64,000 bases of DNA from Candidatus Babeliales bacterium. Its GTDB lineage: Bacteria; Babelota; Babeliae; Babelales; JANWKD01. Position numbers and translations under genes: made by a program. The notes beneath the pieces are model-generated. The model saw nothing but the letters and a program-made list of their open reading frames with translations, ran no database searches and was not told where the DNA came from. The stretch is from the NCBI GenBank assembly GCA_963762115.1, contig CAVXJH010000003.1:64001-128000 (forward strand), given 5' to 3'. Positions 6,867-55,963 of this stretch are shown piece by piece. The first letter of the stretch is position 1, and each line of letters begins with the position of its first letter.

Positions 6867-6990
6867 ACCTACGCCAAGGCTTCGGCTGGCAGGCCAATTC
6901 TTTAAATGAATTTGTTATAACTAGAAAATTGACGTAGGTTGTCCGCCGTAGTTTGCCAAGCCGGAAGGCATGGATAAACGAAGGCTGGAC
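6867..6990 (+). repeat. tRNA-trailing structured element, copy 2
   Basis: Homologous to 4972-5094 with compensatory substitutions. Confidence 0.85.
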
Positions 6991-10921: not shown

Positions 10922-11500
10922 ATGATAGTACTTTTTTTGCCTAGTATCGCCTATTTAATTGGCGCAATTCCAATGGGATTCATAATCGCCCGTTGTGCAG
11001 GTTTTGCTGATATAACGCAGCTTGGTTCTGGTAATATTGGTGCAACCAATGTTGCCCGCATTGCAGGGAAAAAATACTTTCTTTTGGTTTTTTTAGCTGA
11101 CGCGGCAAAGGCATTTTTATATCTTTATTTTTTGCAATGTTGCGAAGTTGCTCTTTCTATGCAATATCTGTGCGCATTATTTCTCATTTTAGGCAATAGT
11201 TTTTCTCTTTTTTTGGGTGGAAAAGGTGGCAAAGGTGTTGCAACTTCGGTTGGCATTATGGCGGCTTTCAATATATACGTGCTTTGTGCAATGCTTTTTT
11301 TGTGGCTTTGCGGTGTTATGAAAACACGTAATATTGGTATATCATCAGTTATAACGCTTTTTTTGTTGCCAATTTTTGTTTTTGTTTTAGTTCAACAAAT
11401 CACTGATTTTTTTCTGCTTACTCTATTTATTTCTTGGTGGGGGATCTGGCGACATGCAGAAAATATTAAACAATTTCTTAAAAGTTTTGAAGCGGCATAA
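10922..11500 (+). CDS. plsY: Glycerol-3-phosphate acyltransferase PlsY
   Basis: GSGNIGATNVAR, GGKGVAT, RH.ENI motifs; multiple TM helices. Confidence 0.95.
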   Translation: MIVLFLPSIAYLIGAIPMGFIIARCAGFADITQLGSGNIGATNVARIAGKKYFLLVFLADAAKAFLYLYFLQCCEVALSMQYLCALFLILGNSFSLFLGGKGGKGVATSVGIMAAFNIYVLCAMLFLWLCGVMKTRNIGISSVITLFLLPIFVFVLVQQITDFFLLTLFISWWGIWRHAENIKQFLKSFEAA

Positions 11501-11609
11501 TATTTTTTTTGTTGTAATTGTTGTAGGGTGCATTTTTTTGCACTGTTCAATGAGCCGTGATATGGTGAATACAAACATCTATGCATCTAAAAATATACAT
11601 GAGGTATCA

Positions 11610-13364
11610 ATGAATTTTAAAAGTGTGGCAGAAGTTTTTGATGCCATTAATCAAGTAAGTTCTCGTTTACAAATTACTGAGTTGCTCGCCAATTTATTCA
11701 AAAAAGCTACGCCAACTGAGGCGCGAATATTAAGTAATATCTCGTTGGGTATGTTGCGTCCGCCGTATGAAGGCACGCAATTTAATATTGCTCAAAAAAG
11801 TATGATAAAAATTATTGCATCATTAACTCATCACACCGTTGCTACTATTGAGCATGAATCAAAAAAATTGGGTGATTTGGGATTGGTTGTTTCAGCGTTA
11901 TATAAAGATCAATCTGAACAATCAATGACGGTGTTACAAGTATTCAAAAAACTTGAAGAACTTGAAGCAATTAGTGGCACTGGTTCGCAAGAAGAACGCC
12001 TTCAGTTGATTGTTGCGTTGCTCAATGATCTTGATCCTTTATCTGCTCAATATGTTGTTTCAATTATTTTAGGCACTTTGCGACTTGGTTTTTCTGATAT
12101 GACCATTATTGATGCTTTATCATGGATGGAAGTTGGTGATAAGAGTATTCGATCTGAACTTGAGACGGCGTATAATATTTGTGCTGATATTGGTTTGATT
12201 GCGCAAACGCTCAAAGAAGGGGGCTTAAAAGCAATTAAACATATGAAAACAACGGTGGGCATACCAATTCGGCTTGCGGCTGCAGAACGATTGCCAAATG
12301 CGGAGGCAGTTTTTGAAAAAATTGGTAAATGCATTGCGCAGCCAAAACTTGATGGCTTCCGATTGCAAGTGCATCTTGATAAAACACATCCAAGAAAACC
12401 TATCATTAAATTCTTTTCTCGTAATCTTATTGATATGTCAGCTATGTTCCCTGATTTGGTGAGTGCTTTTGAAGAGCTCGATGTGGAAACATTAATTGTA
12501 GAAGGTGAAGCAATTGCTTATGAACCGGAAACAGGAAGTTTTGTGCCATTCCAAGAAACAGTAAAACGAAAAAGAAAACATAATATTGAAAAAGCTGCAG
12601 AGGATTTGCCCTTGCAGTTATTTTTGTTTGATATTCTCTATTTAAATGGTCATGAATTGATTAATGAGCCGCATGCAACGCGGCGTGATAAACTAGCTCA
12701 TCTTTTAAAGAAAAATGTGGATCCTGCACTTAAACTTATTCCAGAAGTTGAAATTAAATCAGCAAAAAGTCTTGAGCATTATTTTTATGAAAATGTTTCA
12801 GCAGGCCTTGAAGGTGTTATGATAAAAAAGGATGATGCTGTGTATCAGGCTGGTAAAAGAAATTTTAATTGGATTAAGTTAAAACGGATTACGCAAAGTC
12901 ATTTGGAAGATACGATTGACACGGTAATTTTGGGGTATTATCCAGGTGCAGGCAAACGTGTTCATTTTGGTATTGGCGCATTTTTAGTTGGTGTTTATAA
13001 CAAATCAACTGATTCCTATCAAACAGTTGCCAAAGTTGGTACTGGGTTAAAAGATGATGAGTGGAAAGAGTTACGCATGAAATGTGATACATTACGCGTT
13101 GCCAAAAAACCTATTAACGTTGATTGTGCCAAAGAATTGTATCCTGATGTGTGGGTGAATCCGGAACTTGTTTGTGTTGTTCGAGCAGATGAGATTACCT
13201 TATCACCATTACATACCGCCGGCAAAACTGATGAGAAGCTTGGATTTGCTTTAAGGTTTCCCCGTTTTATGGGTTATCGGCCTGATAAAGATGCTGAGCA
13301 AACAACATCGCCAAAGGAATTGGCACAGCTCTATAAAGATCAATATGAAAAAACTCAAAAATAG
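11610..13364 (+). CDS. lig: ATP-dependent DNA ligase, archaeal/eukaryotic-type architecture (DBD + adenylation + OB); possible upstream start at 11487
   Basis: Motif I QPKLDGFR, FDILYLNG, EGVMIK, W.KLK, LRFPRF...R.DK; GAGGT RBS before 11610. Confidence 0.93.
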   Translation: MNFKSVAEVFDAINQVSSRLQITELLANLFKKATPTEARILSNISLGMLRPPYEGTQFNIAQKSMIKIIASLTHHTVATIEHESKKLGDLGLVVSALYKDQSEQSMTVLQVFKKLEELEAISGTGSQEERLQLIVALLNDLDPLSAQYVVSIILGTLRLGFSDMTIIDALSWMEVGDKSIRSELETAYNICADIGLIAQTLKEGGLKAIKHMKTTVGIPIRLAAAERLPNAEAVFEKIGKCIAQPKLDGFRLQVHLDKTHPRKPIIKFFSRNLIDMSAMFPDLVSAFEELDVETLIVEGEAIAYEPETGSFVPFQETVKRKRKHNIEKAAEDLPLQLFLFDILYLNGHELINEPHATRRDKLAHLLKKNVDPALKLIPEVEIKSAKSLEHYFYENVSAGLEGVMIKKDDAVYQAGKRNFNWIKLKRITQSHLEDTIDTVILGYYPGAGKRVHFGIGAFLVGVYNKSTDSYQTVAKVGTGLKDDEWKELRMKCDTLRVAKKPINVDCAKELYPDVWVNPELVCVVRADEITLSPLHTAGKTDEKLGFALRFPRFMGYRPDKDAEQTTSPKELAQLYKDQYEKTQK

Positions 13365-18460: not shown

Positions 18461-18582
18461 TGTCATTGCGAACCCTGCTTTCAATAAGCAGGGTGTGGCA
18501 ACCCAGAATTTTGGTAAATTTTTTTTTAATGAACTAATTTTATTATCTGGGTCACCACGTCACTATGTGACTCGTGATGACA
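18461..18582. repeat. REP-like palindromic element (paired arms with internal hairpins)
   Basis: TGTCATTGCGA-[hairpin]-GTGGCAACCCAGA ... TCTGGGTCACCAC-[hairpin]-TCGTGATGACA. Confidence 0.8.
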
Positions 18583-18680
18583 ACGGTGATTATTTCGTTT
18601 ATTTTGAATATCGAGTTTGCGTTAATGATAAATTAAACGGCGCCCTTCATGTATGAACAATTTGTAGTTCAAATAAAGGG

Positions 18681-18740
18681 AAAATAAATAGAATTTTATA
18701 CGCTGGGTTCCCACGGCACAACGTGCCTCGGAATGACATT
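18681..18740. repeat. REP-like arm, reverse-complement copy of ~55647-55706
   Basis: aaaataaatagaattttata..ctgggttcccacggcacaacgtgcctcggaatgacatt. Confidence 0.85.
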
Positions 18741-18893
18741 GCAGGGCTTTGTCAGTTATAGTTGATTACCATGTTTTCTAAATTTTTTATCGAAGTCACA
18801 TTAAATAATCAGGAATGTCATTGCATAATGACATTCTTGTAAAACTTAGTTTTGATAAAAATTATTTATTGTGCACATTAACATTCGTATGCG

Positions 18894-20418: not shown

Positions 20419-21087
20419 ATGGTAAAAATCTATTATTTAATAAAGAACTTAAGGATATCATTGGCTGATCAACTCATCACACAATTAAACACCCTGGCAC
20501 AAGAATTCCATCTTTCACCGCGACAAATTGAACAATTTGCTCAGTATGCCACCCTATTGAAGAAGGCGAGTAAAGAATTCAATATTACCACCATTACGGA
20601 TGATGCTGCTATGGTGAATTATCATTTTAAAGATTCTTTAATGGTAACGAACTATCTTGATTTTAGCACCATTAATTACTGTGCTGATGTTGGAACGGGT
20701 GGTGGCTTTCCTGGGTTGCCACTTAAGATTCGGTATCCCGATCTTCCTATGATTCTTATTGAAGTTACTGAAAAGAAGATTCGTTTTTTAGAGATGGTTA
20801 TTCAAGAATTAGGTTTAACCAATATTGAAGTGTGTAATTTAGATTGGCGCACTTTTTTACGCAAAACATCGTATCCAATTGATCTTTTCTTGGCTCGCGC
20901 TTCATTGCAGCCGATTGATTTAATAAAGATTTTCAAACCTTCTTCGCTGTATAAAAATGCAACGATTGTTTATTGGGCAGCTGAGCATTGGCAACCTGGG
21001 GCAGTTGAAAATTTTTATATTTCTCAAGAGAGAGGGTATAGCGTTGGCGATAAAGAAAGAAAATTAGTTTTTTTCAAGAATCATTGA
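20419..21087 (+). CDS. rsmG: 16S rRNA m7G527 methyltransferase (probable TTG start at 20461)
   Basis: NIT.I, HFKDSL, DVGTGGGFPGLPL, KK..FL, ARA motifs. Confidence 0.93.
   Translation: MVKIYYLIKNLRISLADQLITQLNTLAQEFHLSPRQIEQFAQYATLLKKASKEFNITTITDDAAMVNYHFKDSLMVTNYLDFSTINYCADVGTGGGFPGLPLKIRYPDLPMILIEVTEKKIRFLEMVIQELGLTNIEVCNLDWRTFLRKTSYPIDLFLARASLQPIDLIKIFKPSSLYKNATIVYWAAEHWQPGAVENFYISQERGYSVGDKERKLVFFKNH
21029..21077 (+). repeat. Direct repeat, copy within the rsmG 3' end
   Basis: 25/28-nt block plus a 15-nt identical block shared with 23578-23627. Confidence 0.8.
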
Positions 21088-21161
21088 TTTTTCTGCATTG
21101 TAACTAAAAAAAAAATTTATATACTTGTAATCACGCTTTGTTTTTACTGGTAGAGGATTTT

Positions 21162-23564
21162 ATGAGACGTACTATTTTTTTTGTAGTTGTTTTTTTGTGT
21201 GCATTATTTTCGCAAGCCGTTGCAATGGAAATATCTGATAATTCAGCAGTAACTTTTCCAAGAATTGTTCCTCGATTAACTGATATCGCTGCCAAAGCAT
21301 ATGTACAGAAAAGAATGGTCGATGAATACAAATCTTTTGGTATTGATGAAATGACGACTGACAATCTTACTGATGATATTGGTCAAAAAATTAATAGCAT
21401 GCAAAATACAATGCGGGTTGGTAATATTATTGAGGTCCCTGTTGAAGTTAATGATATTTTAGCACGTCATACTTTTAATGCCTTTTTTGAACGTGAAGAT
21501 ATTGAAGATGAAAAAAAAAGAAGAAGAAAGAAGCGATGGAAGTATAATTTAAAAGTAGAAAATAATGAAGAAAGAGGTGTTAAAAAAATATTTTTTGAAG
21601 ATGGAATGCTTTGTTTGGTAAAAAAAGGACATGAGCTATTACTGAAATCAAATGATTCTGAAAAAACAATCGTATGTGATAATTATGCCATATCAAAAGA
21701 TGGTAAACAAGCAATAGTCATTTTTAATTCACCGATTGTTAATGGCTATTATGCTAAAAAACCAACAGTTCGCCTTATTAACACGGTAAAAGAATGTGAA
21801 ATGGATTCTGAACTTGAATTACCTGGTATTCATCCTGGTTTGAAAATATCAGTTCAAGCATTTGATTCTAATTATATTCAATACAGTTTTGGCAATGATT
21901 CCAATGATGCTTGTAAGTTATTTTATGCTTTTGACAAATCATTACTATGTATGGCAACAAAAGTTAAGAATTCTCAGTGGAAGCGTTTATTAATGCCAAA
22001 AGATTGCTTACATTGTTATGATTTTAAAGTTTTGTCTGATGGAAAAGCGGTATGTGCGCTTGTTGATTCTTATGATTCTTCTGAAAAAAAAATTCAATTA
22101 CAGCGTTACATTCCTTCTTTAGAAGGAAGTGAGATAATACGAGAGATCGTATGTCCCGAGTTGTTGTTCGTTCCCGATGGAACAGAAAGGATTACTCTTA
22201 ACGATGTCACCGATGATGCAATACTATATTCAGTTCATATTCCTAGCGGTAATGGATCATTAAGAGAAAAAAAAGTTTTTCAGTTGTCTGATAAAAAAAT
22301 ATTTGTTCAAAATAATACTCATCCAATACCTTTGGATAATTCAATGACTTCTTGTATGGATTTTAAAATACATTCTATGATTCCATCATGTATTGTTGCT
22401 GTACGTTCGCAAGATGATTATCCTTTAGCAAAAATATTTTCTTTGCATGATACTCTATGGAATGAGGTTAAAGAATTTAAATTTCCTTTTACCAATCAGA
22501 ATGATAGGGTAGAGCTTTATCGTTATAATGATAATTGGATTCATTATGGAATTCCTTATGAGCAGCAATTTCCTAGTTCTCCAAAATATTTAAAAGTTCT
22601 TTTAACTCCTGATGAATTATTATGTATTAAGACTAAAGCAGTAGTGAGGACAGATAATTTTGTGGTTCCTTTGCCAACAACTGAAATAATAGAATGTGAT
22701 GATTTTATAGTGTCAGAAGATGAAAATTCGATTGCTATGATACAATATCCTGTTAATTATGACCCTGACGATAAAACTTATGTTGAAGTGATAAAAAAAT
22801 GTATTGAAGAAATAGACGGTCAAAAGAAAGTTACTTGGAGGAAAGTATCACAACTATCATTTCCTTTGCTCTCAGCAATTAAATTACAAAGTCTCAATAG
22901 CACTCATTTATTGTGTAGCATTCGCGAAAGACCTTTAGCCGATGATGATGGGGGATGCTTAGGAGGGAAAAAACTTTCTCGAAATTTTGGCAATAGATTT
23001 AGGGTTTTTAGTCTAGATTCTCATACTTTGGTATATGATAAATATCATTCTTATGGTGAACAGCCTCTTTTGCCTACATTTGGCAATAATGCGAGGCTAA
23101 CCAATGTGACATTAGAAGAAATTTTAGGAAATGTAGCCTATACCAATATTAAAAAGAATATTGCAGAACAAAATCAGAAATTTTCATCGATGAGAGAAGA
23201 ACAAATTCGAAAACAATTAGTAACTTGCTCATCATTATTAAAAAGTCATGAAACAAAACATAAGGTAATGCAAACACAAGAAAGATTGCAAAAAATCTAT
23301 AGACGGGCAAGTTTTTTTACAAAAATAAGAATGTGGGCTCGGCGATGGCGAAATTTTCTTAAACCAGTTATCTATTTAGGCAATTGGAGCACATGGTCAA
23401 ATGCATTATTAGGATTACATTCATTTAATAGTAAGAAAATGACGTGTTTAAAAGTTGGGCTTGGCTTTGCGATATCTTTTCCTGTTTCATCTTGTTTGAA
23501 TGATTTTCTGATGTGTGGTTCTTGGCAAAAAGATGATCAAAAATGGTGGAATAAACAAAAATAA
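21162..23564 (+). CDS. Large secreted hypothetical protein, probable beta-propeller-like effector
   Basis: Signal ...AVA|ME, GAGG RBS, basic KKRRRKKR stretch, repeated (D/N)(F/Y).(V/I)..D strands. Confidence 0.75.
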   Translation: MRRTIFFVVVFLCALFSQAVAMEISDNSAVTFPRIVPRLTDIAAKAYVQKRMVDEYKSFGIDEMTTDNLTDDIGQKINSMQNTMRVGNIIEVPVEVNDILARHTFNAFFEREDIEDEKKRRRKKRWKYNLKVENNEERGVKKIFFEDGMLCLVKKGHELLLKSNDSEKTIVCDNYAISKDGKQAIVIFNSPIVNGYYAKKPTVRLINTVKECEMDSELELPGIHPGLKISVQAFDSNYIQYSFGNDSNDACKLFYAFDKSLLCMATKVKNSQWKRLLMPKDCLHCYDFKVLSDGKAVCALVDSYDSSEKKIQLQRYIPSLEGSEIIREIVCPELLFVPDGTERITLNDVTDDAILYSVHIPSGNGSLREKKVFQLSDKKIFVQNNTHPIPLDNSMTSCMDFKIHSMIPSCIVAVRSQDDYPLAKIFSLHDTLWNEVKEFKFPFTNQNDRVELYRYNDNWIHYGIPYEQQFPSSPKYLKVLLTPDELLCIKTKAVVRTDNFVVPLPTTEIIECDDFIVSEDENSIAMIQYPVNYDPDDKTYVEVIKKCIEEIDGQKKVTWRKVSQLSFPLLSAIKLQSLNSTHLLCSIRERPLADDDGGCLGGKKLSRNFGNRFRVFSLDSHTLVYDKYHSYGEQPLLPTFGNNARLTNVTLEEILGNVAYTNIKKNIAEQNQKFSSMREEQIRKQLVTCSSLLKSHETKHKVMQTQERLQKIYRRASFFTKIRMWARRWRNFLKPVIYLGNWSTWSNALLGLHSFNSKKMTCLKVGLGFAISFPVSSCLNDFLMCGSWQKDDQKWWNKQK

Positions 23565-23577
23565 TTTTCATCTTCTT

Positions 23578-23627
23578 AGAGAAGGTATAGCGTTGATGAT
23601 AAAGACTTCTGTATTAGTTTTTTTCAA
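23578..23627 (+). repeat. Direct repeat: displaced copy of the rsmG 3' end
   Basis: agagaaggtatagcgttgatgataaaga...attagtttttttcaa. Confidence 0.8.
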
Positions 23628-23649
23628 AAATTAATACAGAAGTCTTTAT
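23599..23649 (+). terminator. Terminator-like hairpin
   Basis: 18-bp perfect stem ataaagacttctgtatta/taatacagaagtctttat. Confidence 0.75.
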
Positions 23650-25252: not shown

Positions 25253-25909
25253 GTGAAAAGATTATTCATGGAATTTTTGGGTACCTTCTTTCTTGTTTTT
25301 GCGATTGCAATGAGTTTTAATAGTATTGCTATTGGTGCAATGTTAATGGTGTGGGTATATATTGGTGCCTTTGTTTCAGGGGCACATTATAATCCTTTAG
25401 TCTCACTTGCTATGGCATTACGCGGTAAGTTAGCATGGGATAAATTGCCTTGGTATTGGTTGGCACAAGTTCTTGGTGGTTTTGTTGCTTTCGCAATGGC
25501 GTATTTCTTGCACAGGCATGTTGCTTTACCAACACCAGGAGTTGATATCAGCCTGTTGCAAGCATTTATTATGGAAGTATTACTTTCATTTGTATTTGCC
25601 CTTATTATTCTTGTTGTTGGTACTGCAGAAAAATATAAAGGTAATGATATTTTTGGTTTTGCAATAGGATTTTCAATTCCTGCATTAGCTGCTGTTGGAG
25701 GACCAGTTTCTGGAGGTTTGTTTAATCCTGCTATTGCGCTTGGTTCAGCATTATTTGCAATTATAATGGGTGTGTCAATTATCTGGTCGCATATTGCAAT
25801 GTATGTTGGCGGGGCATTATTGGGTGCAGTTTTAGCTGCTTATGCTTTTCATTATTTTATCGCTGAAAAGCATGAAGAAATAATCATTTTTAACTTTGTG
25901 CAAAAATAA
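25253..25909 (+). CDS. MIP family channel (aquaporin-like)
   Basis: EFLGTF, SGAHYNPL, AQVLG, SGGLFNPA; multiple TM helices. Confidence 0.93.
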   Translation: MKRLFMEFLGTFFLVFAIAMSFNSIAIGAMLMVWVYIGAFVSGAHYNPLVSLAMALRGKLAWDKLPWYWLAQVLGGFVAFAMAYFLHRHVALPTPGVDISLLQAFIMEVLLSFVFALIILVVGTAEKYKGNDIFGFAIGFSIPALAAVGGPVSGGLFNPAIALGSALFAIIMGVSIIWSHIAMYVGGALLGAVLAAYAFHYFIAEKHEEIIIFNFVQK

Positions 25910-25916: not shown

Positions 25917-26005
25917 TTGATTATTCTTCATTAAAATTTTGTGGAATGTTATAAGGCTTCCAAAGTTATGTTGTATAACAAGAGTCTTTGGTAGCCTTTT
26001 TTATT
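25917..26005. repeat. ~88-bp repeat copy 1 (matches the 3' end of CDS 29774-31060; contains a hairpin and T-run)
   Basis: tttgtggaatgttataaggcttccaa.gtt.tgttgtat.acaa.agtctttgg..gcctttttt occurs three times. Confidence 0.92.
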
Positions 26006-26161
26006 TAATTTTTGCATAAGCTTTTAATTTTTAGCGAATTTAAGTATAAGCTCTACGTTAAAAGAACAGGTTAATGGGTAGTTTCTTGCTTTGAAGGTAT
26101 AGTTTAAGTATAATAAAAATAGAATTATAAGTATTTTTATTATTTATTGTGGGGGTTATAT

Positions 26162-26923
26162 ATGAAATTGCGATCCAATCTTGTTTTAATGATGGTTATT
26201 ATTGCAACTTTTTTAGTTGTTTTTCCATCATGTAGAGATGCTGAAAAGAGTGTTTCTGCCCAACAAGCCGGAACAATTATCATTTTGCATGGCATTTCTT
26301 CTGCTGGAAAAACATCTACGGCAAAACAAATACAGGGATTAATGAATGATCCTTATGCCTATGTAGGTATAGACTCTTTAAATACTATGTTACCTGAATG
26401 GCTTGTTAACTTTAATCCTGCCACTGCTACAATAACTTCAAAGGTAAAACAAGATGGGTTAAGTTTTGAACCTACTACCGTTAATGGAGAGCAGATTCTT
26501 ATTGTTAAAGTAGGGGTGTTTGCCAAAAGGTATTTTATGCTAATACCTGAGATAATAGCTACTTTTGCTGGAAATGGTTTTAATTGTATTACTGATATTG
26601 GTTTTGCTGCAGCAGACCAAAAATCTAATGAAGATTCGCTTAAAAAATACGTAAAAGATTTGCATGGTTATAAAGTTTATTTTATTAATTTAACGGTTTC
26701 ACCAGAAGTTGCAGCTCAGCGTGAACAGGCTCGAGGTGGTTTTAAAGGCTTAGCGGCAGGCCAGCAGTATTCAATGCTTAAAAGTTTAACTCCCCAAAGT
26801 TTTGATTTAGAAATTGATACGAGCGAGCTTTCGCCTGAACAAATTGCGCAAGAAATTGTTGAATTTATGAAATCGCATAAAGAGCCTCAAGCATTCAATA
26901 ATTTATATAATCATTATTTTTAA
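26162..26923 (+). CDS. Chloramphenicol phosphotransferase-like P-loop kinase with a lipoprotein-like signal
   Basis: IIILHGISSAGKTS Walker A, RE.ARG...GLA..Q, DLEIDTSELSPEQIA; N-terminal hydrophobic stretch ending FPSC. Confidence 0.85.
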   Translation: MKLRSNLVLMMVIIATFLVVFPSCRDAEKSVSAQQAGTIIILHGISSAGKTSTAKQIQGLMNDPYAYVGIDSLNTMLPEWLVNFNPATATITSKVKQDGLSFEPTTVNGEQILIVKVGVFAKRYFMLIPEIIATFAGNGFNCITDIGFAAADQKSNEDSLKKYVKDLHGYKVYFINLTVSPEVAAQREQARGGFKGLAAGQQYSMLKSLTPQSFDLEIDTSELSPEQIAQEIVEFMKSHKEPQAFNNLYNHYF

Positions 26924-26990
26924 AAATAATAGTTATATTCTTAATTTTCAGATTTTTTGTTTTGTATGGGTAATTTTTGTAAGAAGATAT

Positions 26991-27079
26991 TTATTCTTCA
27001 CTAAAATTTTGTGGAATGTTATAAGGCTTCCAAAGTTCTGTTGTATTACAATAGTCTTTGGGGGCCTTTTTTTATTGAT
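26991..27079. repeat. ~88-bp repeat copy 2
   Basis: As copy 1. Confidence 0.92.
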
Positions 27080-27206
27080 ATAGGTAATCAGAGTTGGTAA
27101 TAATTTCAAATTGACTTTTATTTAAAATAGTATAATATGATTATATCAAGGGCAAATAACCCTCATAGAAATATTGATCAAGCCACTCCATTTTAGGGAA
27201 AAAATA

Positions 27207-29768
27207 ATGAAAAACTTCAAAAAAATAACCTTATTTTCACTCTTAAGCATCTTATTTATACCTCTTTTGGGTATGGAAAAAGGAAACCAACCCATTCTTA
27301 CCTGGGTTAAATCAAAAAATAACGATGAGTCTATTTCTTTTACAGACAACGAAAAAATGCTCAGTAATACACTGGAATATATGACTCATGGAGAAGAACC
27401 TTCGTCGCAAGATAACCCATTTCAGCTTGAGGTATCGTATAATACTCTTAATATTTGTAAGACAATCTTTAGTGGTCTTCAAACGGTGTCAGATATACCT
27501 GAAGAAGAAAAAGTATTAAATATAGCAAATTTTTTTTCACAACCACATCTCAATTACGATAAAGATGAATTCAACTTTCTTGATATACCTCTTGTGGAAA
27601 AAGCTTTTAAGCTATTATCGCAACAACAAGGCATACCAACCTCAAATAAAAAAAGGAAACGAGAAGAAGAGCAAAAAAACGCCCAGGCAAAAGAATTATT
27701 TAAAAAACAAAAAGAAGGTTTTGAGGAAGAAGAATTTGTAACTATTAAAACGGCTGATGATCAACAAGTGATAATGCCAACACGTTGGTTACGACTGTTG
27801 CCAACATTGAATAATGTTGCCGGTGATATAGAGGATAGTGAAAATATTATTTATGCTCCTATTTTTGCACAAGGTCTTACTATTCTTAAGGATATGTTTT
27901 TTGCGGTCGAAGAAGCTAAAGAAAAAATTGTTTTTAATCTTGATGAACAATGCATTGAACGTCTTGCTTGTTTAGAAAAAGAAAAAAAAGAAGAGTTAGA
28001 CAAATTAGATTTTTTATTAACAAAACAATGCGATGAATTATATGAATTATATAGTAAAAATAGTAACATAGGTCAGTTAATATCCTCATCAAAATTACAC
28101 GTTACTCCTTTGCCACAATCTGCATTTTCTCCACAAAAATTACAACTTACTCCCTTGCCACAATCTGCATTTTCTCGAGGATTAGAAGATTCTATAAAAA
28201 AATTAAAAAATGACGCACAAGAAAAAAAAGAGTTACTTATAAAGTCATTTGCAGTAAAAGAAAAATCAATCAAAGAGCAGTGTATCGGTCTAAAAAATTT
28301 CAATATTAAAAATTTCAATATTATTAAGACAGTCAAGCAACATTTTGTCAGTAAAGAGTTGTCTTTTGAAGAAATTATGAACTTAGCAATGTTAGGTGAT
28401 TTTACAGGATGTTCGGTATTATTAAAAGCTGCCATTAGTTTAGGGCGTGATCATATTTTGGCAAATCCTCGCAATGGTGATTATAAGTTTGAAGAATTAT
28501 CACATGAGATTGCAACGATATTTAATGAAAAACTACAAAAAACTATTACAAAAAGCATAGCTTCAAATATAAAATTTTTAAATGGTATTGGTGAATGTTC
28601 TTTTTCAAATGATGGGAGAATTGTTGTTCAAAATACTACTGGTTTAAATATTGTTGATTTAAAACGAAAAACAACAAGAGAGATATTTGATTACAAGCAA
28701 GGTGATATGCGAATAATAGGAGGAAAGGAACATGCACTTATAACAGCAACAGGGCATCAATCAGGTTTTATATCAATGGTAAAATTATATCAGTTTAATA
28801 CTGATGGTTCAGGAATAACAATGCAGGTAAGTTTTAATGATGACCCACTACGCTTTTATCTTTGTAATTATTCATTTGATACTGAATTAATAACGTGCCT
28901 TGGAGAAACAGTATCGCCAAGTAATAATGCAAAATTATTGTGGCATTCTTCAGATCAAGCAGTAGTTTTTATAGAAGAAAAAAGCCGCAGACATCATATA
29001 ACTTCACTATTCTTTGGCAAGAAAGAAATAGCAATACGACATGGCGCACGGGTATTACCTTATTGTTTTACTGGCGATCACCGTAAACTTATAACATGTG
29101 GCATTAATTTATGTGACCAATCACGATCTGATCAAGATAGAGAGTCGAGCATGAATTATAGTTTATGTAGAATATGGGATACAAAGACTGGGGATGAAAT
29201 TGCGACTTTAGATTATGCAATTGATAATGTACATTCCATAGCATGTTCCTCTGATGGAGAGATTTTTGCAATATTAGATGAAGATTTATTTATTTATGTT
29301 TATAACATGAAAACAAAAGAGATGATATCATGTTTTAATGCATATGGCGCAGTAGAGCAGCCAGATGATATAGATTCCTTTGATATTACACCTAATAATC
29401 AATATATCATTATTGGAGGCCGGAAGTTCAGACCTCCGTATACTTCAGGAATAAAATCAATATGGGACATAAAAAAAGGTGACAACGTTTTTAAGAATAA
29501 TAACGTTTACTCTATTCTTTGCCAGCCAGATGGTTCAATAATTATACGAAGAAGTCAAGAACATAAAATTGTTACTGACCATATTTTATATGATATACAG
29601 GCAACTCAGGTAGCATTGCGCAATTGTTCATTAGACGCATCATTGTTGATGGCAAAAATAATAAACAGTAAGGATTATTATGTATTAAGTCCTGAAGAAA
29701 AAGAGTGTTATCAAGTACTTCCAGAAGTATTAAAAAATATCGTAAACCTACATATCGCAAAAGAATAA
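27207..29768 (+). CDS. Secreted Skp1/BTB-like + WD40 repeat protein (candidate effector)
   Basis: Signal ..LLG|ME; WD40 blades (CRIWDTKTG, IACSSDG, FDITPNN, SIWDIKKG); Skp1-like segments; KKRKR. Confidence 0.8.
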   Translation: MKNFKKITLFSLLSILFIPLLGMEKGNQPILTWVKSKNNDESISFTDNEKMLSNTLEYMTHGEEPSSQDNPFQLEVSYNTLNICKTIFSGLQTVSDIPEEEKVLNIANFFSQPHLNYDKDEFNFLDIPLVEKAFKLLSQQQGIPTSNKKRKREEEQKNAQAKELFKKQKEGFEEEEFVTIKTADDQQVIMPTRWLRLLPTLNNVAGDIEDSENIIYAPIFAQGLTILKDMFFAVEEAKEKIVFNLDEQCIERLACLEKEKKEELDKLDFLLTKQCDELYELYSKNSNIGQLISSSKLHVTPLPQSAFSPQKLQLTPLPQSAFSRGLEDSIKKLKNDAQEKKELLIKSFAVKEKSIKEQCIGLKNFNIKNFNIIKTVKQHFVSKELSFEEIMNLAMLGDFTGCSVLLKAAISLGRDHILANPRNGDYKFEELSHEIATIFNEKLQKTITKSIASNIKFLNGIGECSFSNDGRIVVQNTTGLNIVDLKRKTTREIFDYKQGDMRIIGGKEHALITATGHQSGFISMVKLYQFNTDGSGITMQVSFNDDPLRFYLCNYSFDTELITCLGETVSPSNNAKLLWHSSDQAVVFIEEKSRRHHITSLFFGKKEIAIRHGARVLPYCFTGDHRKLITCGINLCDQSRSDQDRESSMNYSLCRIWDTKTGDEIATLDYAIDNVHSIACSSDGEIFAILDEDLFIYVYNMKTKEMISCFNAYGAVEQPDDIDSFDITPNNQYIIIGGRKFRPPYTSGIKSIWDIKKGDNVFKNNNVYSILCQPDGSIIIRRSQEHKIVTDHILYDIQATQVALRNCSLDASLLMAKIINSKDYYVLSPEEKECYQVLPEVLKNIVNLHIAKE
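28091..28175 (+). repeat. 45-nt in-frame tandem duplication (KL..TPLPQSAFS x2)
   Basis: aaaattac...ttactcc.ttgccacaatctgcattttct occurs twice. Confidence 0.9.
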
Positions 29769-29769
29769 A

Positions 29770-29858
29770 TTGATTATTTTTCATTAAACATTTGTGGAAT
29801 GTTATAAGGCTTCCAAGGTTCTGTTGTATTACAATAGTCTTTGGTGGCCTTTTTTATT
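29770..29858. repeat. ~88-bp repeat copy 3 (coding 3' end of 29774-31060)
   Basis: As copies 1 and 2. Confidence 0.92.
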
Positions 29859-31060
29859 GATTTTATATGCGTAAATTCTTGTGGATAATATTCTTTAAAG
29901 AGCTTGAATACTTTAAAACAAAAATGTAATGCATGATGTCGAATTTGCATAAATTTTTTGAGATGTTCGGTATATGTTGATGGTAAACCGGTATTCATTG
30001 CAAGTAAGTTGTTAAGGGTGTTTTTTTCAGGATTATTTTTATAATATTCTCCCACTGCTGAAAAAATCATTTCGTTTATTATTTCTTGCTCTTGGTCTTT
30101 TTGATTTTCAGGCATCATTGATCCATAAAAGTGGTCTAATACCATTGCTCCATATTCTAAACAAAGGTATTCAAAATTTGAATTAAGGTAATGCATTATG
30201 GTAAAAAGATAGTTATTGAGAGTAATTTTATTTTTTTCTTGATAGCTTTTATCTTCAAGTTCTATAAATCCTTTATCATTGGGTATAAAGTGTAACTTTT
30301 TTAAAATTTTTAATTGTTGGATGCCTTGATTGAATATGTGTTGGGAAATAAAGTAATAGTTAAAAGTCTCATCATCTAATGCAGAAAATTTATTGTTATT
30401 TTTGTGCCATTGGCATGCTTCAGTTGTATATTCCATAATTTTTTTAGAGTGAAATGCCATGTCAATGAGGATTGGATATTTAATGACCATAGTTTCTATT
30501 GTTCTTTCCACTATTTTTTTGCGTGGTTGGCATCCATGTTTTAATAAAAATAAACAGGTATTTTCATAATGATGTGACAAGGCTGTTCCAAAAATATCCG
30601 CATCTGCTGACATTTCATTATCTATGCAACAACGAAATATTTTTAAAATCTCTTTATCTTGTTGGTTTGTGCATAACCTTAATAGTGTAGTAATTTTTTT
30701 TTGTTTTTTTTCTTGATCATTAGAATTTTGACGGGCAAGTGTAAGGCCTAGTGAGGGATACAATGATTGTGTTGATGAAGATTGTTGTAATAAGGTTGAA
30801 AAATATTCCGCATTTTTCCTTTTTGTTGCATGTGTTAAAAGAGGTTCAACCAGTTCATCAGGAATTTTTTTTGTTATAACAGCATGATTGAGTTGTGTGC
30901 CGGCCTGAGATGCTTCTTGTGTGAAAAAACTCGCACGACAATGTTTTTTTAAACTTAATGGCCTAGATAAGACTATTCTTTGAGTTGTATTTTCCATGCA
31001 CATGCAAGAAATTGTTCTTAAGAGTGTAATGAATAGTAATGTGTGTGTAGTGAGTTTCAT
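29774..31060 (-). CDS. Secreted hypothetical protein with degenerate ankyrin-like helices
   Basis: Signal ..SCMC|ME; LSLKKHCR; CLFLLKHG. Confidence 0.7.
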   Translation of the reverse strand: MKLTTHTLLFITLLRTISCMCMENTTQRIVLSRPLSLKKHCRASFFTQEASQAGTQLNHAVITKKIPDELVEPLLTHATKRKNAEYFSTLLQQSSSTQSLYPSLGLTLARQNSNDQEKKQKKITTLLRLCTNQQDKEILKIFRCCIDNEMSADADIFGTALSHHYENTCLFLLKHGCQPRKKIVERTIETMVIKYPILIDMAFHSKKIMEYTTEACQWHKNNNKFSALDDETFNYYFISQHIFNQGIQQLKILKKLHFIPNDKGFIELEDKSYQEKNKITLNNYLFTIMHYLNSNFEYLCLEYGAMVLDHFYGSMMPENQKDQEQEIINEMIFSAVGEYYKNNPEKNTLNNLLAMNTGLPSTYTEHLKKFMQIRHHALHFCFKVFKLFKEYYPQEFTHIKSIKKATKDYCNTTEPWKPYNIPQMFNEK

Positions 31061-31288: not shown

Positions 31289-32968
31289 ATTCAGCACAAA
31301 TCTTTTCTAACGTTAAGTATATTCTTAGGTTTTTTTGTTTTTGATGTATCTCTTCAAGCAATGAATCGTGAAGGTCAGCAATATCCTGTGACTTTTCCCA
31401 GACCAAATAATAATGGATCTGATAGAAGTCCTACGGCTCAATCATCTGAAAATGATATGCCTGTTAATAAAGAACAATTTTCAAGATTTGTACAAGCTGC
31501 GGTGATTGAAACATTAACTAAGTTGCATGGTGGTACGCCAATAGAAGAAAAATCATCAACTGAAGAAAAATCTCCGGGGGAAGGATTTTTTAGACCAATT
31601 TTTGATGGCGAGGACTCATCAAATTATGAAAAACTAGATTCAAATTTTGTAAGATCGCTTGTTGACCATGCTCCTGAAAAATTAAAATTCATTATTAAAT
31701 TGTATGCAAATCCTAGATCTTATGGACTTGTATCACAAAATAGTTGTTTCAAAAATAAATTTTTATTATATGGCCCTCCTGGTGTGGGTAAAAGTTCTTT
31801 AGCAAAAGCTTTTGCTGATTATTGTGATATTCCTCGTCAATTTATTGTGGCAGCATCATTACTTAATCAATATCAGCACTCAGGACAACAAAATCTTCGG
31901 CAGCTTTTTGATCCTCTTCTTGCAAAAAGAAGTAAAGATCCTAATGTTATTATTTTTGATGAATTTACTTCTGTGATAAATACAGATGAAAAAACTGGAA
32001 AAAATAATGAAGAGAAAATGTTATCAGTATTGTTGAATATTTTAGATAGTCTTGAAACGCATAAAAATATAATTTTTATTGCAACAACAAATGATATTAA
32101 AGTATTACCCCCACAAATTAAAGATCGTTTTTCAGGGTCGATATTTAAAATTCCTAATTTTGATTTTAAGCGTCGTGAGCAATTTTATCATTATATAAAA
32201 AACAAGAGAGCAAAAAATAATTTTGAGAAGGAAAGAACAGAATTAACAGAAGAATTTAATGAGGAAATAGAATTTGATGTTGTCTTGGATGATAAAGAAA
32301 TAAAAGATTTATCAAAAAAATCATCCAATTTTGAGGGACGCGATCTTAATGAAGTGCAAGATGCTGCAAGTATGTTAGCACTAAGAAAATATGTCGATGA
32401 AGATTTTAATATTATTCAATTATGTATTCCTGTAACAAAAGAGTGTTTTATTGCAGCAATACAAGAAATTCAAGTAATTAAACGCGAAACAGCTTCGGGT
32501 TTTTGGAAGCGTCATAAAGAAACATTTAGAGAATTTTATCCACTTTTTTTATCAACATTTCAAGTTGTTGCTGGGTTAGGGTTGCAATGGTTTTCAATGA
32601 ATCAGCAATATAAGCTTGCGCAAACTAATCACAATGATCAATTGGCACTTATGAGTACTTTTCAAGCTTCACAAATGAAATTTTATGAAAGCACTCATGA
32701 TCAGCAGGTAGATTTTCAAGATAGAGTTCAAAAAGAACAAGCAGTATTTCAAAATAAGGTACATATAGAGCAAATGGCACAGCAAAAAGTGTTGCAAGAA
32801 AAAGCTAATGAGCAACAACTAGCATTCCAAAAACGGGTGCATAAGGATCAACTTGAACTTAGTAGAGAACTAAGTCATCAACAATTAATGATGCAACTTC
32901 ATATGTCAACCTGGGGATTGATTTTGCAAGGCACCCTTGGGCTTTGTGGTTTAATACTTCCGAAATAG
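31289..32968 (+). CDS. AAA+ ATPase (FtsH/Cdc48-like module) with probable signal peptide, C-terminal TM and Q-rich coiled coil; track start 31361, proposed ATT start 31289
   Basis: GPPGVGKS, IIFDE, IATTN, IKDRF; in-frame hydrophobic leader after AGGAG. Confidence 0.85.
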   Translation: MQHKSFLTLSIFLGFFVFDVSLQAMNREGQQYPVTFPRPNNNGSDRSPTAQSSENDMPVNKEQFSRFVQAAVIETLTKLHGGTPIEEKSSTEEKSPGEGFFRPIFDGEDSSNYEKLDSNFVRSLVDHAPEKLKFIIKLYANPRSYGLVSQNSCFKNKFLLYGPPGVGKSSLAKAFADYCDIPRQFIVAASLLNQYQHSGQQNLRQLFDPLLAKRSKDPNVIIFDEFTSVINTDEKTGKNNEEKMLSVLLNILDSLETHKNIIFIATTNDIKVLPPQIKDRFSGSIFKIPNFDFKRREQFYHYIKNKRAKNNFEKERTELTEEFNEEIEFDVVLDDKEIKDLSKKSSNFEGRDLNEVQDAASMLALRKYVDEDFNIIQLCIPVTKECFIAAIQEIQVIKRETASGFWKRHKETFREFYPLFLSTFQVVAGLGLQWFSMNQQYKLAQTNHNDQLALMSTFQASQMKFYESTHDQQVDFQDRVQKEQAVFQNKVHIEQMAQQKVLQEKANEQQLAFQKRVHKDQLELSRELSHQQLMMQLHMSTWGLILQGTLGLCGLILPK

Positions 32969-32974: not shown

Positions 32975-33673
32975 ATGTACGTGTTTAAAATAATTTTTTT
33001 AGTAATTTCATATCAGGTCATTTTCCATGCAAATGCTATGGAAGATAATCATAATCGGCAAACGATTATTAATGTCAATTCACATTCAGTGTCGAATCAA
33101 TGGCCCATAGATCAATGTAATGAAAGTTCGAGATTTGCAAGAGCTGAATCATTGAAAAATAATGCGCCACATTTATCCCAACGACAATTGCAAATTTTAG
33201 TAGATAGACATTATGCATTGCACATTGAAAATAATCGGATAAATAAAGAAGTTGTCTCTAATCTTTCGACGTTAAGTATACACTTTAATAATGAGCCTTT
33301 GCAGCAACTTTTATCGCTTAGTAAGTTTAGTGAGCCTTCTCTTGGTCAGCAACAGGCCAAAACAATTGATAATCTTATCGGTATTTTATATACCCCTCAA
33401 GGATGCCCAAATTTACAGTTAAATGCTTATGAAAAAGTGCAAGTTGCCAGGATAATAACTAATGAATTGAAAGTGCATAAACCATGCGGATATTTAGCTA
33501 TTATTAAAGATTTAGCTTTAAGAAATGCAGAGTTTCAGGAAATTGTAGCACAAGAAACAAAGCTTTTCCCTTGGGCTAAATATAAAACTACCGAGTGGTG
33601 TGGGCTTGTTAAAGGTCTTTTCTGCGCAATGCACGGTAACATAAATATAGAAGAATTAAAAAAAATATTTTAG
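32975..33673 (+). CDS. N-terminal part of a frameshift-split toxin-like protein
   Basis: Signal ..ANA|ME; ends just after an A8 run where a -1 shift enters the frame of 33703-35424. Confidence 0.7.
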   Translation: MYVFKIIFLVISYQVIFHANAMEDNHNRQTIINVNSHSVSNQWPIDQCNESSRFARAESLKNNAPHLSQRQLQILVDRHYALHIENNRINKEVVSNLSTLSIHFNNEPLQQLLSLSKFSEPSLGQQQAKTIDNLIGILYTPQGCPNLQLNAYEKVQVARIITNELKVHKPCGYLAIIKDLALRNAEFQEIVAQETKLFPWAKYKTTEWCGLVKGLFCAMHGNINIEELKKIF

Positions 33674-33702
33674 CAAATGGCTTTAATCATGATCTGATAA
33701 TA

Positions 33703-35424
33703 ATGAGAGAAGCCTTTTTGAAAGGTGATTTTTTAGAGGCAAAAAACATAACTGATGCATATAACAAACCTACAGAATTGTATGTCGGTCTTTATGCAGC
33801 TCTACGGGGTGTGTATGATGCTCGTATTGAGGAATATGCTAAAGTAGTTGAACCAGATAATTTTGCTTTAACGCAATCATACCTTCAGGGTTTCGTCATT
33901 GAGCGTAGAGTAGTTCCCTTGGCTGCTAATTTGATGAATGAAATAAAAAATAATATCAGTGCAGGGGCGCCAAAAGAGCAGACTCAAAAGTTGCAAGAGC
34001 AATTAGTGCAATTGGATGCTTATGCACGACAAGTGCGCAGTAACTATTCTTTTGATGCTCAAATGAAATTGGCTGATTGTGTATATCAATTGGAAAATGA
34101 GCTTGGCGTTAATTGGCGACCAGAATTGCGCAGATCACCTTCAATGGAAAAACTATTTGTTCCGCAAACAGATTTTCTTGTTACAAGCAAGGAAGTTGGT
34201 ACTATTTCATTGGCAGAATTAAAAAAGTTTTCTGGGACGACGGTTGAACAAAATATTTTGCATGAAAAAATGGTTGATCATTTTGTTAAAATCGATTCTT
34301 TAAGTGGGCAACTCAGTGATAGTAGTGTAGTACAGGCTGTTGAAACCTATAAAACTCTTATTGCTCGTGCGCATGAATTAAATAAAGATAGTCGCGTCAC
34401 TTTAGCAGAAGGTGTGTTTACTATAGGCAAGGATATGGTTGAAATTGCCGTGTTTGATCCCCCTCTAAAGGAAATTGAGGATTGCCTTATTAAAACAGCC
34501 ATGAATCCTGCTGATTATGTTATAAAAACAATTGAAGGTTATAAATGTGTCGCAAGTGTCATTCTTGATGTTTGTAAGAATTCTTTAGCTGGAATCGCAT
34601 CCACACCTGAACAACAAGTTGAATTTGCAGAACATTATAATCAACTAATTCATAATTTTTTTGAAGGTTGGCAAAAACTGGAAATAGCTCAAAAAAAAGA
34701 GTTTTTAGCACAAATTATTGTTGATACAGCACTTAATAAAGTGGTTTTCTCATTACCGAAGCTTATGTTAAAAATGGGTGGTTCGAGTACCATAAGTGAT
34801 ATTGTGCAAAAAGGTGAATCTTTTCTTAATAGAATTGATCCCGGATCTTCTGGTGGTGCAGTTGCTCGTGCTGTTCCAATAGCCGCAGCTGAAAATGTTG
34901 TTGAGGCCCTAGAATTTGCGGCAGGTGTTGTAGGGTCAACGGCAGTTGCTATAACTTCTGCTGGAGCGCAAAATGTTGTTGCTTTATCAGAAATGATGAA
35001 TGGAGGTGATCAAGCAAATAAATATAAATTACCTTCATCATTGGGAAAAATAATAGAAAAAACCCCGCTCGATGCTCCAATTCAAAATGATAAAGATATT
35101 ATTTATACTGTAGAACCCGTAATTCAAAATACTATCAAAAAATTTGACGTAACCCGTAAGATTTACAAACACGCATTTGATCCAGATCATGAAATATCAA
35201 AATTCGGTTTATCAGATTTTGAGGCTTTCAATATTTTTGTCGAAAAAATTTTAAGGGCAGATATTGCTAATTATTTACAAGAACCAGGAAATCAAATAGA
35301 AACATTTATCAATGGGTTTGAAGGGACGGTAAGAATTCATATAAATAAAGGAATTGTAACAAGTTTTAATTGTTTTTTCGGTTATTCAGATAGAGTAATT
35401 GGAAAATTAATAAAGATGGATTAA
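33703..35424 (+). CDS. C-terminal part of a candidate polymorphic toxin (helical stalk, Ala/Gly linker, alpha+beta tip with KH..D.H)
   Basis: Domain architecture and tight coupling to immunity-like genes; toxin family not verified. Confidence 0.65.
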   Translation: MREAFLKGDFLEAKNITDAYNKPTELYVGLYAALRGVYDARIEEYAKVVEPDNFALTQSYLQGFVIERRVVPLAANLMNEIKNNISAGAPKEQTQKLQEQLVQLDAYARQVRSNYSFDAQMKLADCVYQLENELGVNWRPELRRSPSMEKLFVPQTDFLVTSKEVGTISLAELKKFSGTTVEQNILHEKMVDHFVKIDSLSGQLSDSSVVQAVETYKTLIARAHELNKDSRVTLAEGVFTIGKDMVEIAVFDPPLKEIEDCLIKTAMNPADYVIKTIEGYKCVASVILDVCKNSLAGIASTPEQQVEFAEHYNQLIHNFFEGWQKLEIAQKKEFLAQIIVDTALNKVVFSLPKLMLKMGGSSTISDIVQKGESFLNRIDPGSSGGAVARAVPIAAAENVVEALEFAAGVVGSTAVAITSAGAQNVVALSEMMNGGDQANKYKLPSSLGKIIEKTPLDAPIQNDKDIIYTVEPVIQNTIKKFDVTRKIYKHAFDPDHEISKFGLSDFEAFNIFVEKILRADIANYLQEPGNQIETFINGFEGTVRIHINKGIVTSFNCFFGYSDRVIGKLIKMD

Positions 35425-35429
35425 AAAAA

Positions 35430-36146
35430 ATGAATAAAAATGAATTACATACATTAATTGAAATGTATAGTCATGAAAGGTCCAAAAAAAACACCGAAGC
35501 TTTAGAAGTTTTTTTGGAAGATTGTTTAAAAAATAACCCTTTTGATACTTACTTATGGGTTAAACTAGCTTTAACCGTATATCATCGTCCTTTGTTTGAT
35601 GACTTAAAAGCAATAGCATGCCTTGAAAAAATTCTTGAGTATGATCCCCATAATGTAAAAATAACACTTGTATTAATATACATGGTGAGCAATTGTAAAT
35701 TTTTTGATGATGAGTTATTTGAAAGATTATGCAAACTACAAACTCAAGATAAAGCATTACTCTCATTAATTGAATATACAAAATCATGGTATTATCTGGA
35801 TGAAAAAAATGATGAAATGTATGAGCAATGTTTAATCAATTCAATTAACTTATGCAGTGAATATCTGTGGAGTTATGTTGATTTGGGACAATTTTACCTT
35901 CAAAAAGGTAATTTAATAAAAGGTCATGAATTAATGAAAGAAGGGTTAAAAAAATTAGAATATGTTTTTGAAGAAAAACCTGCAAAAGATATTTTAAACC
36001 TTGAAGAGTTTTTGAATGAACGTTTTAAAGGGATTCATCTAGGTAAATCAAATTATAATATTATTTTGGAATCATTTGATCCAAAATCTCCCTGGATTAC
36101 CTGTGATTTTTTAACAAAGATCAGTAGAGATACAACAGAAAATTAA
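35430..36146 (+). CDS. TPR protein, candidate cognate immunity protein
   Basis: KAIACLEKILEYDPHN and YVDLGQFYLQKGN TPR motifs; 5 nt after the toxin stop; no signal peptide. Confidence 0.75.
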   Translation: MNKNELHTLIEMYSHERSKKNTEALEVFLEDCLKNNPFDTYLWVKLALTVYHRPLFDDLKAIACLEKILEYDPHNVKITLVLIYMVSNCKFFDDELFERLCKLQTQDKALLSLIEYTKSWYYLDEKNDEMYEQCLINSINLCSEYLWSYVDLGQFYLQKGNLIKGHELMKEGLKKLEYVFEEKPAKDILNLEEFLNERFKGIHLGKSNYNIILESFDPKSPWITCDFLTKISRDTTEN

Positions 36147-36151
36147 TAATA

Positions 36152-36682
36152 ATGATCAAATTAATAGATTTCAAGAAGAATGCTATTTCAATATCCTGGA
36201 AAACTATATTAGTTGGAAGAACATTAAAATTAGTGGATACCTCTTTTATTGAGGATTTTGCAACTCAATATTTACTAGATCATTATAAATTAGAGAATAA
36301 AGATATTATTGAATTGGCTTATGGTGTAAACGACACTTTTGAAATTGATGAAATGGTCAAAAAAATATTGAGCGAATTAAACCAAAATATAGATGAAAAT
36401 TCAGAAGAATGGAATATCGAAACAAGAAAATGGCGTTTTTTAGTATTACAAGAATTACTAAGTAAAGGTTATGATAATAGAAAAATTTTAGATGAAATTG
36501 AAAGCATATATTGTGATTTTGATCACCCTGAAGAAATGAATGCTTTTTTGATTTATATGCCTCATGTTTATGATGATGGATATAATATTAAAGATCATTC
36601 AGCTGAAGAAAATATAGCGCACATAGTGAAGCGGTTTAAAGATTTTCTTTTGAATGAACATAAAGAGCTATTAAAAAAATAG
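36152..36682 (+). CDS. DUF2247-like protein, candidate immunity protein
   Basis: W..I..G, KW...L..L, IE.IY.DFD.PEEM..F..YMP, H..EEN pattern. Confidence 0.75.
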   Translation: MIKLIDFKKNAISISWKTILVGRTLKLVDTSFIEDFATQYLLDHYKLENKDIIELAYGVNDTFEIDEMVKKILSELNQNIDENSEEWNIETRKWRFLVLQELLSKGYDNRKILDEIESIYCDFDHPEEMNAFLIYMPHVYDDGYNIKDHSAEENIAHIVKRFKDFLLNEHKELLKK

Positions 36683-55871: not shown

Positions 55872-55963
55872 GGTTTAATGTCTTTTGTTTTAGGCTTAAT
55901 TCTTTTTAGCTTAGATGATTTTATCTATCGAATTCGCATATTATATATAGTCGAAAGTGATAT

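Follow-up and report, generated by a model that had tools for sequence, protein, structure and literature searches.

Background

Integrons comprise the integrase IntI, the attI site and attC cassettes, and some other integrases target the 3' ends of protein-coding genes and restore the gene in which they act. We analyzed a 64,000-nt stretch of a Candidatus Babeliales genome (GenBank assembly GCA_963762115.1, contig CAVXJH010000003.1, positions 64,001 to 128,000; hereafter, the window), in which three copies of the 3' end of a gene for a 428-amino-acid (aa) protein separate single, unrelated genes. The original prediction took this arrangement for integron-like gene acquisition, a view that we do not share: there are no attC ends, 16 unrelated gene ends in the same genome carry the same kind of scar, and the 36 junctions examined have no motif in common. 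The locus is a further example of a published type of rearrangement, not an integron.

Insertion with long target duplication, as described by Furuta, Abe and Kobayashi (2010, PMC2853133), leaves long, variable, genome-unique direct repeats of >30 bp around an insert of <20 kb without a mobility gene; according to that survey, the repeats frequently extend across a start or stop codon and are found mostly in naturally competent species. Kirchberger et al. (2017, PMC5361080) attribute displaced arrays of type VI secretion system (T6SS)/Rhs genes to homology-facilitated illegitimate recombination and note a likeness to integrons, with no integrase; Touzain et al. (2010, PMC2884548) describe the same homology-facilitated route. 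Gene gains have also been associated with recombination in flanking genes (PMC12359135). We found no publication on the present scar in this lineage, supplements being outside the scope of the search, and the supplementary figures of PMC2853133 may hold closer examples.

Three copies of one gene end

Searches with blastn and nhmmer confirmed three direct repeats of about 88 bp, each downstream of a plus-strand gene, and found exactly these three full copies in the source assembly (G000, 1.53 Mb, 95% complete), at nhmmer E values of about 1e-25, with the next match elsewhere at E 2. In register, the copies occupy 25917-26011, 26987-27081 and 29770-29864, at a spacing of 1070 and 2783 bp. Copies 2 and 3 are, respectively, 86% and 89% identical to copy 1, and 92% identical to each other over 89 nt; divergence of this size rules out an assembly artefact. 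Copy 3 is, on the minus strand, the 3' end of the 428-aa gene; the minus-strand translations of the copies are as had been claimed, and alignment bears out that copies 1 and 2 are displaced ends of this gene. Each of the two units consists of one gene with one stranded gene end. As predicted, the homology ends close to the stop codon: copy 2 breaks off exactly there, whereas copy 1 continues for another 4 nt. At the opposite side, copy 1 reaches 26019 and copy 3 about 29872 when gaps are allowed in the alignment; the two stranded copies thus start near each other, though not at the identical base. Codon-site differences amount to 9/84 in copy 1 and 6/78 in copy 2, and copy 1 is likely, to judge by its sequence, the oldest stranded copy. 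The insert as a whole is <20 kb long, is flanked by genome-unique direct repeats of >30 bp, and contains neither an integrase nor a transposase.

The genome-wide search that had been proposed rules out a dispersed family of repetitive extragenic palindromes (REP) or terminators: beyond the three copies in G000, the 260 other genomes of the phylum have no convincing copy, with no match above 41 bits or longer than 37 nt and only short, chance-level similarities. A scan of the window against Rfam returned three tRNAs and no known RNA family at the repeat. Metagenome contigs, searched with a degenerate DNA pattern and with proteins, yielded no locus, and one soil sequencing run contained parts of the locus at a depth of 2-5, in short contigs, with no joint spanning the repeats; no RNA run was listed as containing it. 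By eye, the region upstream of the 428-aa gene seemed to hold a stranded end of the aquaporin gene; the alignment test did not support it.

The site in a related genome

The sole other genome of the same genus (G001, median protein identity to G000 of about 67%) has the gene order rsmG, aquaporin, AAA ATPase. Its aquaporin, a 66% ortholog, is separated from the AAA gene downstream by 177 bp that hold a different hairpin terminator. The CPT-like, WD40-like and 428-aa genes are all missing from this site in G001, as are the three genes that intervene between rsmG and aquaporin in G000; the expectation that a relative would lack the intervening genes at this place was correct, and the variable site is a place of gene gain or loss. 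An empty site with one repeat copy between aquaporin and the 428-aa gene, which the original prediction also called for, was not found, and G001 lacks the 428-aa gene altogether.

Recurrence of the scar

We scanned for non-coding direct copies of the 3' end, the 5' end and the middle of genes of >=120 aa within 15 kb of the gene. Among the 1237 genes of G000, 3'-end copies are found downstream of 21 and upstream of 5 (binomial p 0.0025), and copies of gene middles 0 times downstream and once upstream; in G001 (1091 genes), the corresponding numbers are 13 downstream and 2 upstream for 3' ends (p 0.007), with two mid-gene copies downstream. Four of the 27 G000 matches were dropped, one without a gene in between and three from a paralog array, to leave 23 pairs at 17 loci; all 13 matches in G001 were kept. 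The layout of these scars (17 loci in G000 and 13 in G001, or about 10 per Mb) is an intact gene end, followed by 0.5-5 kb of other genes and then by a stranded copy of the end. Under a stricter filter (a gene in between, homology ending <=15 nt from the stop codon) there remain 19 pairs at 14 loci in G000 and 12 in G001, and another genome, G003, has 2 over the 260 kb scanned. A scan outside the phylum returned one locus, too little to serve as a control.

The 16 other gene ends targeted in G000 are unrelated to that of the window locus and, as read by eye from their sequences, appear to include those of PriA, Maf, TruA, TamB, AspS, MurB, SbcD and RodA. Relative to the target, the cargo genes have the same orientation in 41 cases and the opposite one in 22. 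The duplicated piece begins 24-210 bp before the stop codon, and the homology ends 0 to +4 nt from it in 15 of the 23 G000 pairs (exactly at the stop in 10) and in 7 of the 13 G001 pairs; if the stranded ends are alleles from different lineages, such an edge is explained by related genomes being alike in the gene and different beyond it. No junction motif was found across the 36 junctions, and folding at the scar ends ranges from none to strong. Within a locus, stranded copies start <=6 nt apart in 4 of 7 pairs, as compared to 11% between loci, the pairs not being independent.

A homolog of the target is present in G001 for 15 of the 17 G000 loci; it directly adjoins the gene beyond the scar in six of them, and does so across further unmatched genes in two more. 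Cargo moves between targets: the gene inside the G001 scar at the SbcD-like target is the reciprocal best match of a gene inside an array at a TamB-like target in G000 (C6:76729-84101). This array is a cleaner example than the window locus. Three stranded ends separate three unrelated genes, with 13 synonymous differences and one non-synonymous difference, and two of the stranded ends have a common insert-side flank of about 30 bp (0/300 shuffles), indicating that one junction was inherited and reused, as unequal crossover would do. Elsewhere in G000 (C3:561773-561919), the genes on the two sides have each left a stranded piece, and these pieces adjoin in head-to-head orientation, as though the locus had been fused from two alternative layouts.

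Codon evidence

The G000 pairs have 94 synonymous differences at 341 sites and 73 non-synonymous differences at 1309 sites, i.e., a ratio of non-synonymous to synonymous differences per site (pN/pS) of 0.20. The ratio is 0.18 in G001 and 0.195 in the pooled set (locus bootstrap 0.13-0.29); it is 0.197 for 22 pairs picked by hand and 0.236 for all 27 G000 matches. In one G001 pair, 22 synonymous differences are seen against three non-synonymous ones over about 200 nt. A copied target end in decay would be expected to change at every codon position of the dead copy. Simulations of such decay (n=12, with varied transition and AT biases) had mean pN/pS of 0.36-0.64, with 0.30 in the lowest run; the pooled ratio is below all of these and, therefore, both ends were mostly under protein selection while diverging. 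On this pattern, the stranded ends are likely for the most part coding alleles from different lineages that were brought together.

The hairpin

The bulged hairpin with its T-run was correctly described, and it folds as plus-strand RNA in all three copies (-21.9, -28.7 and -25.5 kcal/mol; z -3.5 to -5.7), with 6-7 T directly after it. The repeat folds better on the plus than on the minus strand by 5-12 kcal/mol, and at two variable stem positions all three copies keep the pairing on the plus strand, whereas the pairing fails on the minus strand. Each plus-strand gene has its own copy of the repeat directly behind it, and both stranded copies start at, or just beyond, the T-run. The hairpin likely behaves, by these sequence features, as a plus-strand RNA terminator. 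It is not the cause of the scar pattern, because most other scar loci lack a comparable hairpin or a common junction motif.

The family of the 428-aa protein belongs to no curated family (Pfam, NCBIfam) and has four homologs in all; among the 261 genomes of the phylum it is present in one, G000 itself, in two copies. The closest homolog, P0002, keeps 24 of the last 30 residues, as compared to 46% identity overall, and the distant homologs P0004 and P0005 are shorter at this end by about 20 residues. The reading frame may have run into the terminator of a convergent gene in the ancestor of P0004 and P0005, as far as can be read from these sequences. Ankyrin-like leads for this family, from an Atlas feature search, were weak, had low recognition value and were not used.

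Recombination machinery

The claim that there is no local integrase holds, and there is none of the integron type at remote loci of the 95%-complete assembly either. G000 encodes two tyrosine recombinases, both with homologs in G001, and the classified one is XerD/XerC-like; matches to the integron integrase model TIGR02249 reach 66-71 bits for pieces genome-wide and 139 bits for one whole protein, against a cut-off of 265. The attC end patterns RYYYAAC/GTTRRRY have no match on either strand around the three copies, and no reverse transcriptase was matched in G000. Five IS200-like Y1 transposases are encoded in the genome, none of them in the insert.

RecA and the DNA-uptake proteins ComEC and DprA score above cut-off in G000, where competence is putative. 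Ku is encoded at C3:255590-256405 and a LigD-like polymerase domain, separately, at C3:216666-217565; a LigD-type ligase domain is found in a 636-aa gene of the window (11454-13364). None of the LigD-like domains exceeds the whole-protein cut-off, and one has two stops. Ku is present in 69 of the 261 genomes of the phylum. Two further genomes were sampled over 400 kb each of their 1.1-1.3 Mb. G045, with a Ku match, has five copies downstream and two upstream, with ends at -16, -9, 0, 0 and +2 and a ratio of 0.28; G047, without a Ku match and with 28% GC, has four downstream and four upstream, with ends at -88, -61, -31 and +26 and a ratio of 0.56. Stop-anchored scars occur in all four Ku-positive genomes sampled and are absent from 400 kb of the one without a Ku match, a hint, with a single Ku-negative genome, of a link between Ku and the scars.

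Proposed mechanism and its alternatives

The locus was probably built by the additive uptake of DNA from relatives, with RecA as the anchor in a gene end and a non-homologous join about 90 bp ahead of the stop codon; such events would be repeated, or be stacked by unequal crossover, and the terminator would decide which joins survive. The anatomy of the locus, its recurrence, the edge at the stop codon, the codon bias and the empty sites in gene order are observed; the uptake route, the enzyme that joins the ends, the order of events and the role of the terminator are inferred. The incoming DNA would carry an allele of the gene end together with a different neighbor; RecA would pair the common coding part, so that the gene receives the donor's end and neighbor, and the free end would meet the recipient gene about 90 bp short of its stop codon, leaving the recipient's own end stranded downstream. 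A second unit could then be stacked by another join of this kind or by unequal crossover between a stranded copy and the in-gene copy. At this locus, joins that keep a hairpin with its T-run for each convergent gene would be favored, which would explain why both stranded copies start near the T-run. Of the two mechanisms of serial insertion named in the original proposal, trans-acting or homology-driven, the homology-driven one is the better. A wider version of this mechanism, in which it is the main, integrase-free route of gene gain, with RecA anchoring at gene ends, Ku/LigD sealing the joins, and the scars serving as reusable homology sites of about 90 bp through which single-gene units stack and move between strains, seems to us rather doubtful; hints of it are the distribution of Ku and of stop-anchored scars, the repeated inner boundaries and the one inherited junction.

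Several observations weigh against additive uptake. The codon bias at the window locus itself is opposite, with one synonymous difference at 28 sites and 14 non-synonymous ones at 134 (ratio 2.9), and donor origin is here extrapolated from the genome-wide pattern; the opposite bias is likely explained by a constraint on the 428-aa tail as RNA. No genome among the 261 of the phylum has the 428-aa gene beside aquaporin or beside only one of the two cargo genes, and no genome displays the order of events at this locus. The two stranded copies in the window have no insert-side flank in common, and of five multi-copy loci, three have copies that diverge more the farther they lie from the gene, and two the reverse. 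Copies of 5' ends form a mirror pattern (13 upstream and one downstream in G000, six and five in G001), several of these matches being palindromic repeats or paralogs. MutS, which is present, should hinder recombination with DNA so diverged. As for the terminator, two changes in copy 1 disrupt pairs of the inner stem, and a simple terminator scan did not call the bulged hairpin.

True long target duplication, in which a staggered break in the recipient's gene end is filled in on both sides of a foreign gene, so that two identical copies arise and one of them later decays or is kept as a terminator, would produce the same geometry and belongs to a class already published (PMC2853133); the window pairs, without synonymous bias, and the presence of Ku and LigD-like domains agree with it. 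We nevertheless regard it as unlikely, as the pooled pN/pS, including its bootstrap range, lies under every simulated decay run, the G001 pair with its 22 synonymous changes is hard to reconcile with decay, and random cuts do not explain the 15 of 23 ends at 0 to +4 nt. The same synonymous bias requires that both ends were coding during divergence, which also speaks against local tandem duplication of a gene end with its neighbor, followed by replacement or fast divergence of one neighbor and with no incoming DNA for the repeat. The Maf-like and AspS-like loci, where paralogs lie on both sides of the stranded end, would suit such a duplication; at the window locus, the aquaporin, CPT-like and WD40 genes are unrelated and have no common DNA outside the repeat, and we consider this explanation quite improbable.

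Finally, a trans-acting site-specific recombinase or HUH enzyme might recognize the folded repeat and insert single-gene circles in an integron-like manner, given the bulged hairpin in all three copies, the close starts of stranded copies within loci (subject to the dependence of the pairs) and the five Y1 transposases in the genome. This appears scarcely credible, since the only two tyrosine recombinases score far below the integron-integrase cut-off, attC ends, a junction motif and a reverse transcriptase are all lacking, many scars have no hairpin, and the variation within the hairpin fits plus-strand RNA pairing.

Genes of the variable site and other features of the window

The features of the locus are collected in Table 1. 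The labels aquaporin and CPT-like kinase given in the original prediction stand, the latter with a score under the NCBIfam CPT cut-off; the WD40 label has sub-cut-off matches only, and the Skp1 label was confirmed neither by Pfam or NCBIfam nor by a search of PDB sequences with the N-terminal 432 aa. Neither the CPT-like nor the WD40-like gene has a match in G001. A CPT-like homolog with 50% identity sits at a different locus in G003 (L019:8972-10371), where its own 3' end recurs, in decayed form, behind it. The WD40-like protein has a 27% identical paralog at G000 C6:14465-17023, and the two have DNA in common from window position 27103, i.e., about 24 bp inside the 2783-bp unit, to just past the stop codon.

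Table 1. Coordinates of the features of the variable site and of the second scar in the window
Feature	Position	Strand	Evidence or remark
Copy 1, stranded allele of the last ~30 codons of the 428-aa gene, with two in-frame stops	25917..26019	-	Farthest from the gene
Copy 2, stranded allele of the 428-aa gene end, open frame	26991..27079	-	Homology stops at the stop codon
Copy 3, in-gene end of the 428-aa gene	29770..29872	-	Alignment
Bulged hairpin and T-run in copy 1, likely aquaporin terminator (predicted)	25953..26002	+	-21.9 kcal/mol, z -3.5; 44 nt past the aquaporin stop
Hairpin and T-run in copy 2, likely terminator of the CPT-like gene (predicted)	27023-27073	+	Fold
Hairpin and T-run in copy 3, likely terminator of the WD40 gene (predicted)	29806-29855	+	Fold
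Resident aquaporin gene (MIP family) bordering the variable site on the left	25253..25909	+	Pfam MIP 6e-25
Cargo of the 1070-bp unit: CPT-like P-loop kinase, hydrophobic stretch at the N terminus	26147..26923	+	Pfam CPT 4e-21
853-aa protein with C-terminal WD40-like propeller; cargo of the 2783-bp unit	27207..29768	+	Sub-cut-off WD40 matches
428-aa orphan-family protein; its 3' end is the anchor	29774..31060	-	No curated family (Pfam, NCBIfam)
AAA ATPase; resident gene, right edge of the variable site	31361..32968	+	Pfam AAA 5e-26
rsmG 3' end, anchor of the second, independent scar	21029..21081 (gene 20419-21087)	+	TIGR00138 over cut-off
808-aa protein between the rsmG end and its stranded copy	21138..23564	+	No Pfam match; none in G001
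Stranded copy of the rsmG end	23578..23631	+	80% over 54 nt; 0/200 shuffles reach the score

The window contains a second scar, at rsmG, which in G001 is directly followed by aquaporin. A hairpin of 20 pairs (23601-23647) overlaps the stranded rsmG end and could, as predicted from the fold, terminate the 808-aa gene. To the right of the variable site, at 32975-36682, genes of 232 and 573 aa occupy the place of a single 793-aa gene in G001, with TPR-like and DUF2247 genes next to them; this looks like a polymorphic toxin-immunity locus, and the best G001 match of the TPR-like gene is inside a scar elsewhere. Two other repeats were noticed. A palindromic repeat of about 60-105 bp, perhaps a small non-autonomous element, has direct and inverted copies at 18526-18786, 55601-55706 and 55810-55873 (48 blast pieces genome-wide); one of these copies runs into the 5' part of an open reading frame of 135 aa, perhaps an IS200-like remnant. 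The same structured-looking sequence of about 130 bp follows each of two different tRNA genes, at 4945-5094 and 6840-6990 (19 blast pieces genome-wide).

Relation to known systems

The stranded ends are a readable record of recent gene gains and of their order, in a lineage for which few close genomes exist. The synonymous bias speaks for many "long target duplications" being alleles added from relatives and not duplications. If the link to Ku is true, bacterial end-joining gains a role in gene gain; if the wider version of the proposed mechanism is true, cassette arrays can be built by DNA repair alone.

As in integrons, single genes form an array here, with related imperfect hairpins between them; unlike in integrons, there is no IntI and there are no attC core sites, the separator is the coding end of a gene on the opposite strand, and the separators at different loci are unrelated sequences. 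As with the integrases that act at 3' ends, the target gene is intact and the displaced end lies as a duplicate on the far side of the insert; in contrast to them, no integrase is found in or near any unit, the targets are many, and the inner boundary lies 24-210 bp before the stop codon.

The resemblance to long target duplication, as presented in PMC2853133, extends to the type of repeat, the lack of a mobility gene and the size of the insert. The genes in that survey are restriction-modification genes, with breakage by them suggested, whereas the cargo here is kinase-like and WD40-like; moreover, the events here are stacked, occur at about 10 per Mb and, by the codon test, usually have a diverged coding allele as the second copy. 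With the T6SS/Rhs arrays of PMC5361080, the locus would have in common, under the proposed mechanism, one homologous anchor with a non-homologous join, and repeated events that push older pieces outward. In those arrays, the anchor is found upstream of a toxin domain, and it is immunity genes that are stranded; in the present scars, the final 25-210 bp of ordinary genes serve as the anchor, and what is stranded is the gene end itself. What the present locus adds to these published systems is the density of the scars, the codon evidence for donor alleles, and a possible link to end-joining.

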